From Candidatus Sysuiplasma jiujiangense (GTDB taxonomy: Archaea > Thermoplasmatota > Thermoplasmata > Sysuiplasmatales > Sysuiplasmataceae): 45,623 nt of DNA. Both the position numbers and the translations under genes were made by a program. The stretch is taken from positions 1 through 45,623 of the forward strand of contig JAHEAD010000016.1 in assembly GCA_019721075.1 (NCBI GenBank). The letters are read 5' to 3'. The notes beneath the pieces were generated by a model. That model saw only the letters and a list, made by a program, of their open reading frames with translations. It was not told where the DNA came from and did not search any database. How positions within the stretch are numbered: position 1 is the stretch's first letter; each line of letters starts with the position of its first letter. This document shows, piece by piece, positions 13,179 through 25,122 of the stretch.

Positions 13179-13303
13179 ATGCCGGCGATACCGCATTACT
13201 GAAAAAAGGGTCTTCCTGTCTTTCCGGTTCGGCGGCAATGAAAGCATTTATACCAGAGCAATTGTCTGAATACCATCGGATTGCAAAGGGAACCGGTGAA
13301 ATA

Positions 13304-13456
13304 ATGTCGGATAAAAAGGCTGTCACACTCTACAAATGCTGGTTCTGCGGAAGGGAGTACAGGACCGAGGAGGAAGCGGACAGATGCCACAACGCAGGCT
13401 ACTATCCCATTTTCAGGGACGGAACAAAGAGGAAGAGATCACCCTTCGGTAACTGA
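13304..13456 (+). CDS. Small zinc-finger protein (50 aa)
   Basis: YKCWFCGREYRTEEEADRCH (CxxC-x12-CH); GGTGA SD before ATG 13304. Confidence 0.7.
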   Translation: MSDKKAVTLYKCWFCGREYRTEEEADRCHNAGYYPIFRDGTKRKRSPFGN

Positions 13457-13457
13457 T

Positions 13458-13925
13458 TCACCTCCTGCAGTATACGGAAAATTCGCAATTTCTGCACTTC
13501 CCGAGATCTTCAGTCATTTCGAACGGGCCCGCCCGCATTCTTGCCATAATTTCCATGAGGTATGTTTTTGCTTCCGGATTCCACCGAACGAAAAATTCAC
13601 CGTCGGGGTACACAAGCCTCCCTCCGTCCGTATTCCCCAGATTCTCCTCCACAAGCAGGCAGTATGCGAGGAGCTGGGCCACATCCCATTCACGGGCTGC
13701 GCCGCCGCTCCTGTAGCTCTTATACTCAATAGGCGCATATCTCAGTCCTTTCTTCAGAATCAGGTCAGGCTTGCCGCTAAGGCCGTACCGTCTGGAGACC
13801 AGGACAATCCCCTGCCGGCTCATATCCGATGATTTTATCCGCTCTGTTTTCAGAAATATGAAGAGAGCTGAAGCAAGGAATCCGGCAGCTACAGCCGCCA
13901 CCAGCAGAATCTTCAGAGAAACCAG
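13458..13925 (-). CDS. Cas4-like PD-(D/E)XK nuclease, C-terminal part, with N-terminal TM helix
   Basis: YGLSGKPDLI, PIEYKS, QLLAY, C-terminal CRNCEFSVYC; start either CTG 13925 (GGTGG SD) or GTG 13901. Confidence 0.85.
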   Translation of the reverse strand: MVSLKILLVAAVAAGFLASALFIFLKTERIKSSDMSRQGIVLVSRRYGLSGKPDLILKKGLRYAPIEYKSYRSGGAAREWDVAQLLAYCLLVEENLGNTDGGRLVYPDGEFFVRWNPEAKTYLMEIMARMRAGPFEMTEDLGKCRNCEFSVYCRR

Positions 13926-14167
13926 ATTATCGCCACCATAACAGCGGCAATCAGGCCCAGAATGATTAGAACACGTCCCCCGGAATACTGCCGCCTGACG
14001 CTGAATTCCGTTTCGCTGTGGTAGGTGAGGCCAGCGTCTTTCCTGAGGCTGACGTATTCTGGTTCCGTGTAATCCGGCGGGGGCGAAACCGTATAGTAAT
14101 ATTTCATCTCGCAGTATACATAGGTGGCTATAGCAGAAGCGGTCAGCCGACCGCTGTGTCCTTGCAT
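13913..14167 (-). CDS. Cas4-like N-terminal module with C-terminal TM helix
   Basis: LTASAIATYVYCEMKYYY and G..YH match the Cas4 N-terminal Cys motif and motif I; hydrophobic tail VLIILGLIAAVMVAIIWFL. Confidence 0.75.
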   Translation of the reverse strand: MQGHSGRLTASAIATYVYCEMKYYYTVSPPPDYTEPEYVSLRKDAGLTYHSETEFSVRRQYSGGRVLIILGLIAAVMVAIIWFL

Positions 14168-14280
14168 CCCGTCATCCCATCATCAGTTTCCGGATTCGCT
14201 CGCAGTGCTCATTACAGTTCCGGTGACAGAATTTCAGCAGGAATTGATATTTAAACGATTCAGGAGGATGACCGCAACGG

Positions 14281-15446: not shown

Positions 15447-16025
15447 TCATTTCTGCCGGCCACTCTTCACATATATTACGAGGTTTGAGGAAGTATAAGG
15501 GTTTTTTATCCTCCGCAGCCCCATGCGCCTTACAAGCGTAGACCAGATGTATGCTGTTACCTCCAGTCCTGACTGCCTGGAGAGGTATTTCTTATCCCTC
15601 TGCGTCATCAGATAACCGAAACGCTCCAGCCTTTTGCAGGCAATCGTATGCAGTCTCTGCCAATCATCTGCGCCGAGCAGAGTTCCTGCGGGAGGGCTGA
15701 AACCGTCATCTGTGAACGCCCGGATCCTTTTACCGTGCGCAGGAGTTCCGGTGCCGTATGTTCCGTAAGCTGCCGATTCGGCAGGCTGAACAGATTCAAT
15801 GGAAAGAAGAACCTCCCTGCAGAATGTGTTTACCTCCCGTGCAAAGTCAATCACGGGGGAAGCGTTACCTTCAGTTCCCCTCAGGTAGACGGAATATAGC
15901 AAATCCGCCTCCCTTTCCATTTCGTTCTCATAGTAGCTGTCCGCCGATTCGGCAGCCCTCGGTACATCTGGCTGCAGCTCCGCAGCAATGCAGTGTCCCT
16001 GGTCTGCAACCATAGCGTCTGACAT
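15447..16025 (-). CDS. Hypothetical protein
   Basis: 192-aa ORF with GGTG SD and an AT-rich TATA-like element upstream; acidic N-terminus, basic C-terminus. Confidence 0.65.
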   Translation of the reverse strand: MSDAMVADQGHCIAAELQPDVPRAAESADSYYENEMEREADLLYSVYLRGTEGNASPVIDFAREVNTFCREVLLSIESVQPAESAAYGTYGTGTPAHGKRIRAFTDDGFSPPAGTLLGADDWQRLHTIACKRLERFGYLMTQRDKKYLSRQSGLEVTAYIWSTLVRRMGLRRIKNPYTSSNLVIYVKSGRQK

Positions 16026-16371: not shown

Positions 16372-19300
16372 ATGTCAGAAGAGGATGCCGTCACCGGCAA
16401 GTTAGTCGACAAACCCAGGTCTCCCTCAGGAAACAAAAGCAGGAAGCCTGCAGAAAACAGCGCACTTGAAGATATAATTTCCAGCGCCGTAGACACGCTG
16501 TCTGAATCCGGGAGCTGGAAATCAATGCTTTCCTCCTTCAGCAGGAACCTGGCAAGAAGCAGAACAGAAATGTTTGCCGTCTTCGTTGTAATAGGCCGCG
16601 ACCTGAAATTCAAATGGACAACATACAACGAAATACTCGGGAATCCTGAAGAGCTCAGCTACGAGGATCTGCTGCCGCTGAACGCAGATTTCGGGGAAGC
16701 GGCAAAGACGATAAGCGTACCGGGCAACAACATAAAGCTCCTCAGTGAGATTTCCGCGATTACAAACATAGACGACTTCACACTTTACAGAGGCGGCGAG
16801 CACCGCAGCCCCTCGCTTTACATGTATGTGGGCTCAAGGAGGAAGCTTGACGGCACTGAGAATTTAGCCCTTTCCATGACAGCAAAGGCATTCGACTCGA
16901 TAGTGACAAGGGAATTCAGATCTTCGGAACACCTGTACAGGTCATCCAGGCTTGCTGCGGCAATCGAAATAATGATTCAACTTCAGGAAGGTGAAATAAC
17001 AGGCAGCACGCTCAACAAAGTCTCTGACATATTGCAGAAGAGGCTGCCCGTCGATTTCGCTGCAATAATGATTGAGGATGAAGACAGCCACAACATTGAG
17101 ATGACAGGAATAAGCGAGGCTTTAACCTCCCTGTACGACACGCCACAGAGCCTGAAGACAAACAATCTCCCGGCTCTCGTCGGATCAAGTAAAGATTCTG
17201 TGATACTGACGGAATTTGAAGGTGCAAACTACAGGCCGCTTGGTATTGGAAGCAGATGGGCCTGTGTGATCCCCCTTGCCATCAGTTCCAGAAGAGGGGG
17301 ATTCCTCATACTTGAAAGCAGGACGGCGGCACCGTTCGACGAATCTGAACTGGATGACATAGAAGTCGTTTCCAGGGCAGTTGCGGACAGAATTTCATCA
17401 AAGCTCATGGTTGCCGGGAAGGACAGAAAAATTGGCGTCAGAAACATGCTTCTTGAAGAGCTGCTCCTGCTACAGCGGGAAAATGATCCTTCGAAAATTG
17501 CCGATGATGCCCTCACATTCATTGATTCCGTAATCCGCTCCAACATATCCGTCTTTTACGTTCTGAATGAAAGCAGATCCATGCTTATACCGATTCAGTC
17601 GCATGGCATATTTGCCGAAGAGATGCTCTCATTCTCCGTCAGAATCGGGGAGGGAATTGTCGGCAGGGCGATGACAAGGGACAAACCTGAACTCGTTCAT
17701 GAGGCACATACCGATGCGAGATCCGTAAATATCCCGGGAACGCCCAACGAGCCGGAATCGATCCTTACAATACCCATCAGAAGCATCAGGGAGGACATAG
17801 GCGTAATAGCACTTCACCGCATAGGCCGAAAGTCTTTTTCAGGCGAGGAAATCGAGCTGGCGGAAATCACTGCGCGGCATTTTTCCACAGTGATGGAGAG
17901 GGCATACTCGACAGCAGAGCTGAAGAAGAGGATAGCGGAAAGGGAAATGGAGAATCATCTCAGGGCACAGGTTGCCGAGTGCACTTCGTTATGCGCCGAG
18001 ATTGATGATGCCGAGCAGATCTGCCCAATTATGCTTCAAAAGGCAATGGAATTCTGTAACAGCGACAACGGTCTCCTGTTCGTCAGGAAAAAAGGGGAAG
18101 GGACACTGGCAAAACTTGCGGGAAAGGGCATAACAGGCGATACTGCGCTGCCGGAACTGAACGCGGGTGAATTCGATTCACTTTTGAAAAATGCGGTTCG
18201 CCTTTCCTCCGGCGCATTGACTGTGGAGAACATGGGCGACATTTCCACACTTACCGAATTTGTATGCCCGGGGACCCGGGAAAAGGCCGTTTCACGTCTC
18301 TTCGAACGCGCCCTCATCAGTGAGTCGCGGGAATTTGGCGGCTCATCGGCAGTATTCATATGTTTTGACTACAGATCGAATATAAGGACGGAAAATTTCA
18401 GAAACGCCGTAATGCAGGAACTGCTTAATTTTCTCTCTGTTCAGCTGGTTAAACTGAACTCAAGGAGGAGCGGCATCGTAGAACTTGAACAGTTGAAAAA
18501 GATATCCGGATTCAAGGACATTGCAAATGACGAGGCAGACATAAATTCGCTGCATAAGAAGACAACCGAGTATCTGGAAAGCGCTCTCAACGCCGTGTTT
18601 GTCGCGGCATACAGAATCGACTACGAAGGGGAACGCCTTGTTCTGCTGCACTCATCCTCGCATTCATATTTCCCTCCGAAGGAGCTGCTGTTAAAGTTCG
18701 TGGCAGGTTTCCTGGAAAAGCTCAATCGCTCATCGACGGTTGCGACAATAGATCTGAAGGACGACGCAGACAGCTATCCTGAGCTGTTCAGGAACAGGAT
18801 GGCCATCTCCAGGCTCAATTCCACGGAAGGCGCCGACATACTTTTCCTGGCAGGTTTCAGCGATTACCGGGCGATGGCAGAGCAGCTTACCGTCTTTTCG
18901 GAATCTGTCAGATATCTTGAAAACAGAATAAGACAGCTGGAGGCCTCCTTCAGGGAAAGGCAGAGGTCAGGCATACTGAATCTCATCGGCGAGATAGGAC
19001 GAAAGATTTCGTCCGAAAGGGATTTCAGGAGGATGCTCGATGCTCTTGCCTCGGCCGCAGGCCACATCATAGGCGCCGAATATGCGCTCACGGGAGTGGT
19101 TTCCGGCTCATTCGTCGAATGGAACGGTTATTTCGAAACAATGATTCCGGAATCGATAGACAAGCTTGCACTGAAGTCCGCAGAACGCGGGGAAGCCATA
19201 GTAGTCAACAACTTTGAAAAGTCGCAGATTGAACTGGACAGCACCTCGGCGGAGACAGTCAAGGACATGGTAATCTATCCTGTCTTCAGAAGAAGCGAAA

Positions 19301-20421
19301 GCGAAACACCCATACTCCTGCTCCTCCTGAACAAGTTTGACAGGAAGGGTTTTGCGGAGAATGATATCTGGATAATCGAAAGACTCGCCGCGGATGTTGT
19401 GAATTCCGTCAAAAACATAGAAACTCTGAGAAGAGAGACGCAGCTCAAGAGAAAAGCAGAGACGCTGAGCAATGAGCTTGCGGAAATACTCGACGAAATG
19501 GAATTTCCAATTCTGAGAGTGGGCACTTCCGGCAGCATAGAATTCGCGAATGAGTATGCCAGGAAGCTTTTCCTGCCGGATATTCAGGGCGAGGGACAGA
19601 AGATCACGTCCCTCCTCGATGAGAAGGATTCACTGCAGATCGTGGAACTCACAGACAACCTGAGGAAATCCGAACGGTTCGATTCTTCCTATTCGCTGCT
19701 GACGCATAACGGCCTCAGAAGAATGAATGTTTCCGGCATACCCATACAGGGGAAGGGAAAGAAAAAGGGCACCATACTGCTGATCAGGGGGGAGGAGGCG
19801 CTGATTGCTCCAGGCAATGACGGCAGTGATGAAAATTACCAGTCCGCCAGGCATTCCGAAATTGAGGGCATACGCTACACGATGAAGCGCGGCTACAGCT
19901 ACATGGTGAATGAGCAGAGGCCGCTCCTGGCATATATGGCGCTGAATGATCTTTCCAGGGCCGGATTCGACATTCTTGCGATAACAAGGCAGCATCCGAC
20001 AAAGATCAGGGAGAAATTCGGCTTAATCGGCGCGGAAATCAGGTGGCTGACACAGGTCGTGGGCAGCAACAATCTCGATCCCTCCAAGATATCCATGATT
20101 ACAAGCGCCATTCTGAACTTTATCGACAGGCACAGGAATTCAGCAATTCTGATTGACGGCCTGGAATATCTCCTCCCAAATAACAGCGTCGTCAAGGTTG
20201 TCGGTATGCTTGAGAGCGTCATGCAGAGGACAGTGGACAGGGGTGCAGTTATAATCGCATCTGCCGACAGGCTTACCTTTGACCAGAAGGATCTTGCCAT
20301 GATAGAGAAGATGTTTGAGGAACTTGATCTCAGGGAGATGAAAAGGCGTTACCTCAACACGGAGATAGAAAAATTCGATACGAATAAAATTGAACCGGCA
20401 GGAGACGATGCAAATGATTAA
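16372..20421 (+). CDS. Multi-GAF + PAS + DUF835 (KaiC-like) signal transduction protein
   Basis: GAF motifs (IGEGIVGRA..SILTIPI..IGVIAL..FS.EE; VIPL..GFLIL..PFD), PAS (PILRV...G.IEFAN), C-terminal LAITRQHP, RWLT, ILIDGLEYL..N. Confidence 0.85.
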   Translation: MSEEDAVTGKLVDKPRSPSGNKSRKPAENSALEDIISSAVDTLSESGSWKSMLSSFSRNLARSRTEMFAVFVVIGRDLKFKWTTYNEILGNPEELSYEDLLPLNADFGEAAKTISVPGNNIKLLSEISAITNIDDFTLYRGGEHRSPSLYMYVGSRRKLDGTENLALSMTAKAFDSIVTREFRSSEHLYRSSRLAAAIEIMIQLQEGEITGSTLNKVSDILQKRLPVDFAAIMIEDEDSHNIEMTGISEALTSLYDTPQSLKTNNLPALVGSSKDSVILTEFEGANYRPLGIGSRWACVIPLAISSRRGGFLILESRTAAPFDESELDDIEVVSRAVADRISSKLMVAGKDRKIGVRNMLLEELLLLQRENDPSKIADDALTFIDSVIRSNISVFYVLNESRSMLIPIQSHGIFAEEMLSFSVRIGEGIVGRAMTRDKPELVHEAHTDARSVNIPGTPNEPESILTIPIRSIREDIGVIALHRIGRKSFSGEEIELAEITARHFSTVMERAYSTAELKKRIAEREMENHLRAQVAECTSLCAEIDDAEQICPIMLQKAMEFCNSDNGLLFVRKKGEGTLAKLAGKGITGDTALPELNAGEFDSLLKNAVRLSSGALTVENMGDISTLTEFVCPGTREKAVSRLFERALISESREFGGSSAVFICFDYRSNIRTENFRNAVMQELLNFLSVQLVKLNSRRSGIVELEQLKKISGFKDIANDEADINSLHKKTTEYLESALNAVFVAAYRIDYEGERLVLLHSSSHSYFPPKELLLKFVAGFLEKLNRSSTVATIDLKDDADSYPELFRNRMAISRLNSTEGADILFLAGFSDYRAMAEQLTVFSESVRYLENRIRQLEASFRERQRSGILNLIGEIGRKISSERDFRRMLDALASAAGHIIGAEYALTGVVSGSFVEWNGYFETMIPESIDKLALKSAERGEAIVVNNFEKSQIELDSTSAETVKDMVIYPVFRRSESETPILLLLLNKFDRKGFAENDIWIIERLAADVVNSVKNIETLRRETQLKRKAETLSNELAEILDEMEFPILRVGTSGSIEFANEYARKLFLPDIQGEGQKITSLLDEKDSLQIVELTDNLRKSERFDSSYSLLTHNGLRRMNVSGIPIQGKGKKKGTILLIRGEEALIAPGNDGSDENYQSARHSEIEGIRYTMKRGYSYMVNEQRPLLAYMALNDLSRAGFDILAITRQHPTKIREKFGLIGAEIRWLTQVVGSNNLDPSKISMITSAILNFIDRHRNSAILIDGLEYLLPNNSVVKVVGMLESVMQRTVDRGAVIIASADRLTFDQKDLAMIEKMFEELDLREMKRRYLNTEIEKFDTNKIEPAGDDAND

Positions 20422-22611: not shown

Positions 22612-25122
22612 GTGACTTTTCAGCCAGAGAATGAGGACAAAACTGTTGTCGGGAGACCCGGCCTCGCCGCGAATCTGATGAAAAGGCTTGTCTATGCCGC
22701 CCTGTCCGTATTCTTCATTTCATCCGCGACAACGCTGTGGTCAAGCACGGGCTATCTGAACATCGGTGTGCTTCTGGCAGTCTGGTCCCTTCTCATCATT
22801 TCCGGCGTGCTGCTTGTTCTAGCGGCGCTGGTCAGGCCCCCAACTCAGGGCAGGAGAAGGAAGACATTCTTCGGCAGGACCGGCCTCCTTAAAAAGACGC
22901 TGAACAAATCCGCATGGGTTCTGCTGGCAGTTTTCTTTATCTCGTTTGCCGCAGGTCTGTGGTCAGCACCCGTCAGATCCGGTCTGGAAACAGCCGTTGC
23001 CGTCTGGTCCCTTCTCATCATTTCCGGCGTGCTGCTCGTTCTTGCAGCATTTACAGACACAGACAGCAGGAAGATGGAAAATGCCTATCTGGTCATTCTG
23101 CTTTCCGGCATGACAGCGCTTTTTGCCGGAATAGTCGCTACCGCACCGCTGTTCGGAACGGATGAAATTGCGATTGAAACATATGCTGCACACCTCACCC
23201 TGAACGGCATAGATCCGTATGTCGTGGCAAACATGGTCGGCGTATTCCAGCTCTACCATGTATCTTTCTATTATCTGACACCACTGCTGACGGGCGGCTT
23301 TGTTCACAGCCTCAACTATCCCGGACTCTCGGTCCTGCTCATGTTGCCCGGCGCGCTTGGATGGGTACACAGCAACTATGTTCTCGTGTTTTTCAACCTT
23401 GCTTCCTATCCACTGCTCTTCTTTTACTACAGACGGTCTGATTTTACAATTATTTTTCCGTATGCTGTTTTTGTCCTTTTCCTTAATTTCAACTGGATAT
23501 ACTATACAGCCGGCGGACTCACGGAGATCATCTGGCTGTTCTTTCTTTCAGCCTCATACGTATCAAGAAACAGGCCATGGCTGAGCGGCCTCCTCTACGG
23601 GCTGAGTCTTTCCAGCAAGCAGACTGCGGCGGCGATTCTTCCATTCTATCTGTATTTCATCTACATGGAGAACAGCAGAAGCACGAAGCTTACGGGTGAA
23701 TTTGTTCTGGCCGGAACGCTGTCGTTTCTGCTCACCAATCTGCCTTTCATTTTAATGAACCCGCACTCCTGGTTTTTCAGCGTTGCCGGAGTAGCAAGCC
23801 AGCCCATAATCGGTATAGGACTTGGTCCCTCGATAATATCGTTCGCCGGCTTTGTTCCGATGTCAAAACTTGTGTTCTATGCCGTTCCGGTAATAATCAT
23901 CGCAGGGCTGTTCGCACTTTACGTCACATACTACGGCGAACTGCGCTATGCATTCTTTGCGTTTCCGGTCATAGCTTTCGTTTTCTACTACAGGCTCCTG
24001 CTCAACTACCTTGTCTACTGGCCATTTCTCATACTTCTTGTTTTCCCTGATGTGATGCAGGCTGTTTACGGTATGAAGCCGGTGCCCCGGGACTGGAGGG
24101 GAGCCGGACGGAAAGTTGCAGCAGCGGCAGCAAATCTGAGGAAACGGAAGGCGGGCGCGGCGGCAGTACTGCTGATGATTCTCGGAAGCAGCATTGTCGC
24201 CGGCTACGGTTACGCTGCCGCACTGCATAACCCCCTTGAGATCACAGGAATAGAATCATTCGGAGACCCGTTTGATATACCTTACAGCATTACATCGATG
24301 AACATTACAATGCGTTATCTGCCGGCCGCAGGAATGCCGCAGAGTATACCGGTATTTTTCAGGGTTCTGATCAACGGTCCCCTCGTGAGCGCTAACGGTA
24401 TGCTCTGGAGTGCCCGGTCGCCGCACGTGGGCAGGGGAAACACAACGCTGCAGATATTCCCTGACACGGTAATCGACTACGTCCCTGTGAATACGGGATT
24501 CAGGCTCATCGCATACTACGGCAGCTTCCAGGCATCCTATTATTCTGCCGGAAGCAAAAATATCTCAGTGGTGCCGATGGAGAATCCGCTCATGCAGAGG
24601 GCTACATTCTTCAGCTCGATGTTGCCGGCAGGCTGGGAATTCGAGCGGAACGCAGGGACCAGTGCGTCATACGTATATACACCGGGCAGGATCACTCTCA
24701 CGCTTGGCATGGCAGCGAACAGGCATATACCCGCAGAGGCCGCAATAGCGAACGACAGAATCAATCTGAGCTCGCTTGCTTCATCTGATTACATACTGTC
24801 GTACTCCCTTTCCGTGAATGACGGCGGCAGCACAAACACAGGAAGTGCTGTTTACGGAGCACTGTTTGCCTTCGGCAACAATACCGAGCACATACTCGTT
24901 GAATACAACAGCTCCGTTTACTTCTCATATTCCAGCCCGGGACCGGATTCGATAATCATACGCACCAACCAGACCGCCATCTACTTCAGCCAGATTGCAA
25001 GCCTCGCGGAATTTGAGCACTGGCCGATGCATGGCGTAAGATTTATGTACCTAGTATGTACGCTCTCTTCAGACGTACCGGTTTCGGCAACATTCTACAA
25101 TTTCAGTATCAGGAGTGGTTAA
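22612..25122 (+). CDS. Polytopic membrane protein, probable GT-C fold glycosyltransferase with extracellular C-terminal domains
   Basis: GTDE acidic motif in first external loop, GIDPY, NYPG, SKQ, NLPF; more than 12 hydrophobic segments; overlaps the GT2 start region. Confidence 0.7.
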   Translation: MTFQPENEDKTVVGRPGLAANLMKRLVYAALSVFFISSATTLWSSTGYLNIGVLLAVWSLLIISGVLLVLAALVRPPTQGRRRKTFFGRTGLLKKTLNKSAWVLLAVFFISFAAGLWSAPVRSGLETAVAVWSLLIISGVLLVLAAFTDTDSRKMENAYLVILLSGMTALFAGIVATAPLFGTDEIAIETYAAHLTLNGIDPYVVANMVGVFQLYHVSFYYLTPLLTGGFVHSLNYPGLSVLLMLPGALGWVHSNYVLVFFNLASYPLLFFYYRRSDFTIIFPYAVFVLFLNFNWIYYTAGGLTEIIWLFFLSASYVSRNRPWLSGLLYGLSLSSKQTAAAILPFYLYFIYMENSRSTKLTGEFVLAGTLSFLLTNLPFILMNPHSWFFSVAGVASQPIIGIGLGPSIISFAGFVPMSKLVFYAVPVIIIAGLFALYVTYYGELRYAFFAFPVIAFVFYYRLLLNYLVYWPFLILLVFPDVMQAVYGMKPVPRDWRGAGRKVAAAAANLRKRKAGAAAVLLMILGSSIVAGYGYAAALHNPLEITGIESFGDPFDIPYSITSMNITMRYLPAAGMPQSIPVFFRVLINGPLVSANGMLWSARSPHVGRGNTTLQIFPDTVIDYVPVNTGFRLIAYYGSFQASYYSAGSKNISVVPMENPLMQRATFFSSMLPAGWEFERNAGTSASYVYTPGRITLTLGMAANRHIPAEAAIANDRINLSSLASSDYILSYSLSVNDGGSTNTGSAVYGALFAFGNNTEHILVEYNSSVYFSYSSPGPDSIIIRTNQTAIYFSQIASLAEFEHWPMHGVRFMYLVCTLSSDVPVSATFYNFSIRSG
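22780..23036 (+). repeat. 35-bp perfect direct repeat, copies 22780-22814 and 23002-23036
   Basis: GTCTGGTCCCTTCTCATCATTTCCGGCGTGCTGCT twice, 222 bp apart, in frame. Confidence 0.9.

Follow-up and report, generated by a model that had tools for sequence, protein, structure and literature searches.

Two adjacent small genes on the minus strand of a 45,623-nucleotide stretch of the Candidatus Sysuiplasma jiujiangense genome (contig JAHEAD010000016.1, hereafter the window) very probably encode the two halves of one membrane nuclease domain of the Cas4 family, that is, of the RecB-type PD-(D/E)xK, iron-sulfur kind. The upstream gene, ORF1, and the downstream gene, ORF2, were taken from a listing of open reading frames (ORFs) in which ATG, GTG and TTG were allowed as starts. 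The gene structure, its conservation, the homology of each half to Cas4, the fold of the core and the co-occurrence of the two genes are matters of observation, and we infer from sequence and models that the two chains pair, hold an iron-sulfur (Fe-S) cluster and act as a nuclease. The pair is a "solo-Cas4" carried on the chromosome, passed on vertically and unconnected with CRISPR adaptation.

ORF1, ORF2 and the Cas4 domain

The original prediction, made from the letters alone, had described an 84-residue gene with the N-terminal motifs of Cas4 and a C-terminal helix, followed by a gene with a membrane helix and the GKPD, EYK, QLLAY and CxxCx5C motifs. All of these features were recovered (Table 1). 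ORF1 reads MQGHSGRLTASAIATYVYC...GLTYH... and closes with a 19-residue hydrophobic stretch, with no residues beyond; along this sequence lie an ASAIATYVYC motif ending in Cys19, the G46..H50 motif and the hydrophobic helix of residues 66-84. Alignment of the nine loci of the order Sysuiplasmatales that hold the pair showed S11, I13, T15, C19, K22, P30, G46, H50 and W82 to be invariant. Cys19 aligns with the N-terminal cysteine of the fused, single-chain relatives and of the Cas4 structures 4R5Q and 8D3L, and the G...H segment also aligns to both structures, with G46, like Cys19 and His50 (Table 1), invariant in 71/71 family members. In ORF2, the C-terminal cysteine triad reads CRNCEFSVYC. An additional cysteine, Cys81 (codon at 13659-13661), aligns with residues of 4R5Q and 7MI4 that are not cysteine, and its equivalent is at least 90% conserved in the fused-type family (46 proteins).

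A search of each half against Cas4 with hidden Markov models (HMMs), which the original prediction had named as a check, was positive for ORF2 and for the ORF1 family taken as a profile, and negative for the single ORF1 sequence of the window. ORF2 matched the Pfam families PDDEXK_1 (2.6e-10) and Cas_Cas4 (PF01930; 9.9e-6, 26.2 bits against a cut-off of 22.7), covering only positions 53-158 of the 160 in the Cas_Cas4 profile, and the ORF2 profile matched residues 116-213 of the Pcal_0546 Cas4 (4R5Q, E 1.7e-6). For ORF1, one profile comprised 71 family members, and a second, order-only profile comprised the nine ORF1 sequences of the order. The best two PDB matches of the 71-member profile were residues 54-108 of 4R5Q (E 0.0025) and residues 3-61 of the type I-C Cas4 8D3L (E 0.012), and 47 of the 71 members, the window copy not among them, matched a PADLOC Cas4 profile at E<=0.05. 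Since the ORF1 family falls on residues 54-108 of 4R5Q and ORF2 on residues 116-213, the two profiles tile one Cas4 chain end to end. ORF1 thus appears to be the missing N-terminus of Cas4, an assignment that holds at the level of family profiles and not of the single sequence.

The AlphaFold (AF2) model of ORF2 alone, with a pLDDT of 88.9, aligned with residues 62-181 of the Cas4 chain 7MI4_A (Z 13.2, rmsd 4.3, 113 residues aligned), and also with 8D3L_J 58-182 (Z 9.8) and 4IC1_G 73-202 (Z 8.5). The alignment with Cas4 begins only at about residue 58-62, and the missing stretch of about 60 residues corresponds to the length of the soluble part of ORF1. In SSO0001, His62, Asp99 and Glu113 coordinate the Mn ion together with a backbone carbonyl (PMC13621843, PMC12501428). 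Because this metal-binding histidine belongs to the N-terminal part, the corresponding ligand would here be carried by ORF1 and the acidic ligands by ORF2. With the RecB-type D, ExK and QxxxY motifs, the CxxCx5C triad and the N-terminal Cys and His, the last two on ORF1, the pair has the motifs expected of a member of the Cas4 family. As for the fold, the modelled ORF2 core is predicted to adopt that of Cas4, and the whole fold is seen only in the model of a fused paralog, described below.

Table 1. Coordinates of the two genes and of their predicted elements in the window
Feature	Position	Strand	Description
ORF1	13913..14167	-	ATG start, 84 aa; predicted tail-anchored N-terminal piece of Cas4 domain
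Cys19 codon of ORF1	14111..14113	-	predicted first 4Fe-4S ligand; invariant in 71/71 family members
His50 codon of ORF1	14018..14020	-	predicted motif-I metal ligand; invariant in 71/71 family members
ORF1 C-terminal transmembrane helix, residues 66-84	13916..13972	-	mean Kyte-Doolittle 3.11
ORF2	13458..13901	-	GTG start 13901, 147 aa; predicted N-terminal membrane helix and Cas4 nuclease core
ORF2 N-terminal transmembrane helix, about residues 1-19	13845..13901	-	from hydropathy and charge; helix 2-17 in the AF2 model
ORF2 nuclease motifs II and III, G43-K-P-D46 ... E59-Y-K61	13719..13775	-	invariant in 32/32 aligned relatives
ORF2 Q76-L-L-A-Y80 motif, then Cys81	13659..13676	-	Q76, Y80 and C81 invariant in 32/32
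ORF2 C136-x2-C139-x5-C145, three C-terminal cluster cysteines (predicted)	13467..13496	-	invariant in 32/32; aligned with the 4R5Q Cys triad
TATA-like box TTTAAATA	14248..14255	-	stop codon of the preceding saccharopine-dehydrogenase-like gene 26 nt before it, ORF1 ATG about 80 nt after it

Conservation, linkage and a single-chain paralog

An orthologue of ORF2 was found in nine of the ten genomes of the order, the tenth, without one, being 85% complete. In all nine loci with ORF2, a TGA-terminated orthologue of ORF1 lies directly upstream. The original prediction had named an indel fusing the two frames as an observation that would speak against it; none was present in the contigs of four independent metagenome runs, from four studies, which bridge the junction with zero inserted or deleted letters and with no listed difference between 13900 and 13930. 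Among the public runs listed for this DNA, none was of RNA. Fourteen strain differences are listed inside ORF1. Nine of them are synonymous, including differences in the codons of C19, A10 and A12, and we conclude that purifying selection acts on the ORF1 frame itself. The pair is confirmed as a real two-gene arrangement and not a broken gene.

The two genes had also been described as overlapping, which they are not in the window with ATG, GTG or TTG starts: 11 nt separate the TGA of ORF1 (13915-13913) from the GTG of ORF2 at 13901. Overlap is found in the eight orthologous loci, where ORF2 starts inside ORF1 by 4-25 nt, with ATG in six and TTG in two, which is the ordinary geometry of coupled overlapping genes. 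The equivalent of this start codon is CTG in the window (13925-13923), because the Ile81 codon of ORF1 is ATC and not ATA, a change that is synonymous in ORF1. GGTGG sits 6 nt upstream of this CTG. The window ORF2 starts either at GTG 13901 or, less conventionally, at CTG 13925, 24 nt upstream. ORF2 stands in the -1 frame relative to ORF1 in all nine loci of the order, the window among them. The ORF2 frame is open across the whole of ORF1, with 237 codons without a stop (window 13458-14168, minus strand), and the open frame of the orthologous ORF2 extends over 172-241 codons, the gene itself taking about 150; this long open frame is probably compositional.

To collect the ORF1 family, the profile of the nine order sequences was searched against 1.84 billion representatives, yielding 84 clusters of ORF1-like proteins, all of 76-149 aa. 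They share one layout, ASE-I/L..Y/F.Y/F-C, then G...H, then a terminal hydrophobic helix. A word-based homologue search with ORF1 returned nothing beyond its own cluster. The same type of search with ORF2 gave 31 hits, all of 85-205 aa, and those inspected have the membrane helix first and no N-terminal Cys. A scan of one genome per species detected at least 595 ORF2-like loci, of which the best 80 were judged for linkage with custom HMMs. The hosts of these 80 are Ca. Sysuiplasma (54% identity), other Thermoplasmata, Woesearchaeota, Methanotrichaceae, many Chloroflexota and Pyrinomonadaceae. An ORF1-like gene lies immediately upstream on the same strand in 49 of them and about 0.7-1 kb upstream in four, one locus has a single fused ORF, 22 have no ORF1-like gene in the surrounding DNA, and four are cut by a contig end. 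Five of the 22 genomes without a linked partner were searched whole, and exactly one ORF1-like gene was found elsewhere in each (5/5, E 1.6e-20 to 3.1e-17). Since ORF1 and ORF2 are retained in the genome even when unlinked, a joint function is favoured and a read-through mechanism is disfavoured. Homologues that are always single-chain had been named as a further observation against the prediction; the two-gene form occupies 9/9 orthologous loci and 49 plus 4 of the best 80 related loci. The best 80 related loci, 49 of them with the partner adjacent, belong to Chloroflexota, Acidobacteriota and other archaea.

The genome holds three matches to PF01930: a Cas4g/Cas1g fusion (contig C1), ORF2, and a 327-aa protein (contig C6), which is the single-chain paralog of the pair. 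The paralog starts with ...FSYCP...GSRAH..., continues with four long hydrophobic helices, and ends with GRPD, EFK, QVSAYC and CLSCx5C. For this four-helix type, at least 707 relatives were counted, with lengths of about 320-345 aa; the sources label them 'CRISPR-associated protein Cas4' or 'PD-(D/E)XK nuclease family protein'. In profile-profile comparisons (hhalign), the ORF1 family matched paralog residues 1-51 (97.3% probability, E 2.6e-11) and the ORF2 family matched residues 185-327 (E 9e-47). The paralog model has a pLDDT of 76.2, lower in the helices, which span residues 32-81, 88-113, 118-144 and 150-188. Over residues 1..327 it aligned with the whole Cas4 7MI5_A 6-201 (Z 17.1, rmsd 3.1, 179 residues), and it also aligned with 8D3L_J 5-204 (Z 15.2); its top Foldseek matches were Cas4, MGME1, Dna2 and SSO0001. 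Since whole Cas4 aligns with the helices looped out, the membrane helices interrupt the Cas4 domain exactly where the window pair is cut. Next to the paralog, 41 nt upstream on the same strand, lies the gene of a 262-aa TPD protein (PF14811, 2.4e-41; L002:62-850, plus strand, contig C6); TPD-motif proteins are predicted PD-(D/E)xK nucleases.

Across the class, the ORF1-family profile matched in 160 of 201 genomes. Among the 150 class matches listed, 43 lie in open frames of at most 200 aa, which correspond to the split form and belong to several families, and the remaining ones lie mostly in frames of 330-576 aa, which correspond to the fused form. The genomes of the order have mostly two or three matches each in this listing, and three of them with both matches listed (G005, G007 and G009) have one short and one long open frame each. 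A quick unrooted LG+G4 tree, built from 113 core domains, groups the fused forms in one clade (SH-aLRT 99) and places the window ORF2, its orthologues and one other Thermoplasmata sequence in a separate, all-split clade (SH-aLRT 95). Judged by sequence, the pair belongs to a membrane-embedded Cas4-like family, in which helices lie between the N-terminal Cys/His segment and the C-terminal core and an extra Cys follows QxxxY; it differs from the single-chain members in having its chain divided between the helices.

Proposed assembly and rival explanations

Membrane topology was assessed with the positive-inside rule, from counts of Lys and Arg in the 15 residues flanking each helix. The ORF1 helix of the window has three K/R in the preceding 15 residues and none after; across loci, 0-4 residues follow the helix, with 3-7 Lys/Arg in the 15 before and 0-1 after. 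The ORF2 helix of the window has no residues and no K/R before it and three K/R in the following 15; across loci, it is preceded by 0-5 residues without Lys/Arg and followed by 0-4 Lys/Arg in 15, with zero in two orthologues. By this rule, both soluble parts are predicted to be cytoplasmic, with the ORF1 C-terminus and the ORF2 N-terminus facing outward, and not to lie on opposite faces of the membrane, the third outcome that the original prediction had named against itself. Such a topology is what one would expect if the outer loop of a transmembrane hairpin were cut.

We propose that ORF1 would provide the N-terminal helices with Cys19 and His50, held in the membrane by a C-terminal tail anchor, and that ORF2 would provide the beta-sheet core (D46, E59, K61, Q76..Y80) and the Cys triad, behind an N-terminal signal-anchor helix. 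The two membrane helices would occupy the site of the transmembrane hairpin or of the four-helix bundle of single-chain relatives, and the halves may pair in the membrane through these helices. A 4Fe-4S cluster would then staple Cys19 of ORF1 to C136/C139/C145 of ORF2, and His50 would join D46/E59 to complete the metal site, the product being a DNA nuclease fixed at the inner membrane face. As to its role, our guess is that it acts on DNA at the membrane, such as DNA that is coming in or is trapped there. That the split itself is functional is possible but doubtful: the enzyme would form only where and when the tail-anchored and signal-anchored halves come together in the membrane, with membrane insertion or chain stoichiometry as the gate, and would act on viral, transforming or division-caught DNA at the membrane, in an undescribed housekeeping or defence function. 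If this were true, such a function would be widespread in Chloroflexota, Acidobacteriota and several archaeal lineages.

Several observations weigh against a two-chain Cas4-type nuclease. The window ORF1, alone or in the order-only profile, has no match in Pfam, NCBIfam or PADLOC, nor in the PDB at E<=10, and it is the 71-member profile that reaches Cas4; the order-only profile aligns with the paralog N-terminus at just 41% probability (E 2.8e-4). ORF2 scores 52.2 bits with TIGR00372, below the cut-off of 65; since it falls below this equivalog cut-off and ORF1 has no hit, the pair is a member of the wider family and not a CRISPR Cas4 equivalog. The window ORF2 does not have the ATG of its orthologues, and the GTG start leaves about 17 hydrophobic residues for the helix. 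The neighbouring genes give no functional clue. Finally, the fifth invariant cysteine, C81, and the confident solo fold raise the possibility that ORF2 might bind the cluster without ORF1. In the corresponding explanation, which we regard as unlikely, ORF2 is self-sufficient with Cys81 as the fourth cluster ligand, and ORF1 is a separate small membrane regulator or inhibitor. The invariance of C81 in 32/32 relatives, the pLDDT of the solo model, the 22 of 80 loci without a linked ORF1 and the lack of a family hit for the window ORF1 are in agreement with it. However, the first 60 or so residues of Cas4, with the motif-I His among them, have no equivalent in ORF2, the ORF1 family is homologous to exactly that missing part, and ORF1 is present in all five unlinked cases. 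Moreover, the fused family keeps the N-terminal Cys together with the Cys81 equivalent, and Cys81 is therefore no replacement for Cys19 in that family. It is still less likely that nuclease activity was lost and that the pair is a membrane Fe-S sensor, of redox state or oxygen, or a DNA-tethering protein. The source samples of the organism are mine drainage and mine tailings, a habitat in which iron and redox conditions are relevant, and metabolic genes are neighbours of the pair; but H50, D46, E59, K61, Q76 and Y80 are all invariant across bacteria and archaea, which is unexpected of an inactivated enzyme.

Two further explanations were rejected, and we assign next to no probability to either. 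According to the first, the pair is a single gene broken by a frameshift, as a pseudogene or an assembly error, or read by programmed -1 ribosomal frameshifting into one two-helix protein. The -1 relation in all nine loci, the 237-codon ORF2 frame that stays open through ORF1, the absence of an ATG at the usual place in the window ORF2 and the existence of single-chain relatives would fit such a mechanism. Yet a -1 relation also results from a start/stop overlap of 1, 4, 13 or 16 nt, no X XXY YYZ slippery heptamer was seen by eye at the junction, and the junction sequence varies among orthologues. The explanation is largely refuted by the ATG or TTG start within the overlap in 8/8 orthologues, by the four runs without indels, and by partners that lie about 0.7-1 kb apart in four loci and are unlinked in 5/5 tested genomes. 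Equally improbable is that the pair constitutes the Cas4 component of the CRISPR adaptation machinery of the genome, encoded away from the cas locus. The genome does have a Cas1, and public labels of relatives read 'CRISPR-associated exonuclease Cas4', but this Cas1 is already fused to a complete Cas4, there is no cas gene among the 150 neighbours and no array in the window, and the membrane type is present in 160 of the 201 genomes of the class. The adaptation role was rejected because Cas1 has its own Cas4 and no cas gene or array is nearby.

Genomic surroundings and known systems

The lack of CRISPR context, claimed in the original prediction for the window, was borne out. No CRISPR-like array was found in the window, only two short tandem repeats, and the sole Cas1 of the genome lies on another contig (C1, L020:811-2490, plus strand) as a 559-aa Cas4g/Cas1g fusion (779 bits with NF049935, for which the cut-off is 560) whose Cas4 domain is complete (PF01930 positions 4-159). 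This fusion points to a putative type I-G-like adaptation module. The neighbourhood survey that had been suggested covered 150 flanking ORFs in the 80 loci and found none with a cas, restriction, helicase or competence function. Housekeeping genes that differ from lineage to lineage surround the pair, namely Peptidase_M50 with PDZ in 14 loci, NAD kinase in eight, PALP with CBS in five, and SDRs.

The order retains one arrangement, in which a saccharopine-dehydrogenase-like gene precedes ORF1 and ORF2, and a small zinc-ribbon gene and an SDR gene converge on them from the other side. The TATA-like box TTTAAATA, also announced in the original prediction, was found at 14255-14248, and it or a near variant is present upstream of ORF1 in orthologous loci; it may act as the pair's own promoter. 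The small gene that converges on ORF2 (window 13238-13456, plus strand), with the two stops 1 nt apart, encodes a 72-aa protein with a zinc-ribbon-like CxxC...CH motif and no Pfam or NCBIfam match. Its 43-73 C-terminal residues are 54-77% identical, in the same abutting position, in eight of ten loci, two of which (L003 and L021) are apparently from one species; the exceptions are L007, where the DNA ends about 120 nt after ORF2, and L035. Elsewhere in the window, Pfam recognises in a 1349-aa protein (16372-20421, plus strand) a GAF domain (372-509) and, at the C-terminus, DUF835 (1190-1315), and leaves most of the sequence unmatched. Two ORFs, of 192 aa (15447-16025, minus strand) and 836 aa (22612-25122, plus strand), match no Pfam family at E<=1e-3; a counterpart of the former, with 42% identity, occupies the equivalent position in Ca. 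Sysuiplasma (L021).

In archaea, solo-Cas4 nucleases are very common. From sequence, a whole solo-Cas4 branch would be attached to the membrane, in one of two builds: a single chain that helices interrupt, or a pair of chains that reassemble the cluster and the active site across their interface. The latter would be a natural split Fe-S enzyme joined by the pairing of transmembrane helices, and its predicted inner-membrane location and its two separately expressible genes offer a handle on function. New here is an archaeal order in which the split pair occurs alongside both the fused paralog and a CRISPR Cas4-Cas1, together with the finding that unlinked partners co-occur in 5/5 genomes, a check of the junction at read level, and the change of start codon in this genome. 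For annotation, the 80-90-aa partner is unnamed, and the 'CRISPR-associated Cas4' label of the core misleads the inference of CRISPR from metagenome-assembled genomes.

A membrane-anchored or split Cas4 was not found described in the full-text literature (the supplementary trees of PMC5704561 lay outside this search), nor was a paper found on the single-chain four-helix Cas4 of Thermoplasmata; the two-gene, membrane-anchored build is conserved and apparently undescribed. Solo-Cas4 genes have been reported as Cas4-family genes outside cas loci, with mostly vertical inheritance and ordinary selection, including a monophyletic group in many Chloroflexi (PMC5704561, Hudaiberdiev et al. 2017). The pair resembles them in lying outside cas loci and in its mostly vertical inheritance, and Chloroflexi is the phylum of most of its bacterial relatives; the words 'transmembrane' and 'split' are absent from the main text of that paper. 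The Solo-Cas4 of M. mazei is a soluble 30.7-kDa protein that forms an oligomer of about 318 kDa (PMC12501428, Rentz et al. 2025, in whose main text the word 'membrane' is absent), whereas the window pair is predicted to be membrane-anchored.

The nuclease domains of AddB, AdnAB, Dna2, EXO5 and MGME1 have the same PD-(D/E)xK core as the pair and are all among the structural matches of the models, and in AddB, Dna2 and EXO5 a 4Fe-4S cluster ties the N-terminal Cys to the C-terminal triad. They are, however, domains of large soluble helicase-nucleases or mitochondrial enzymes, and we know of none among them that is membrane-anchored or likewise split. CRISPR Cas4 (PF01930/TIGR00372/COG1468; SSO0001 4IC1, Pcal_0546 4R5Q, type I-C 8D3L and type I-G Cas4/Cas1 7MI4-7MI5) shares with the pair the fold, as predicted for the latter, and the motifs, that is, the N-terminal Cys with CxxCx5C, the motif-I His, D, ExK and QxxxY. 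By contrast, CRISPR Cas4 is one soluble chain, and the pair consists of two chains with a membrane helix each, the break falling after the motif-I helix and before the first core strand, with an extra invariant Cys after QxxxY and with no cas1, cas2 or array nearby. Like the pair, the Thermoplasmata four-helix paralog has two soluble segments and the same invariant residues, including the extra Cys, but it is one polypeptide with four helices in a separate clade, whereas the pair is built of two polypeptides with one helix each.

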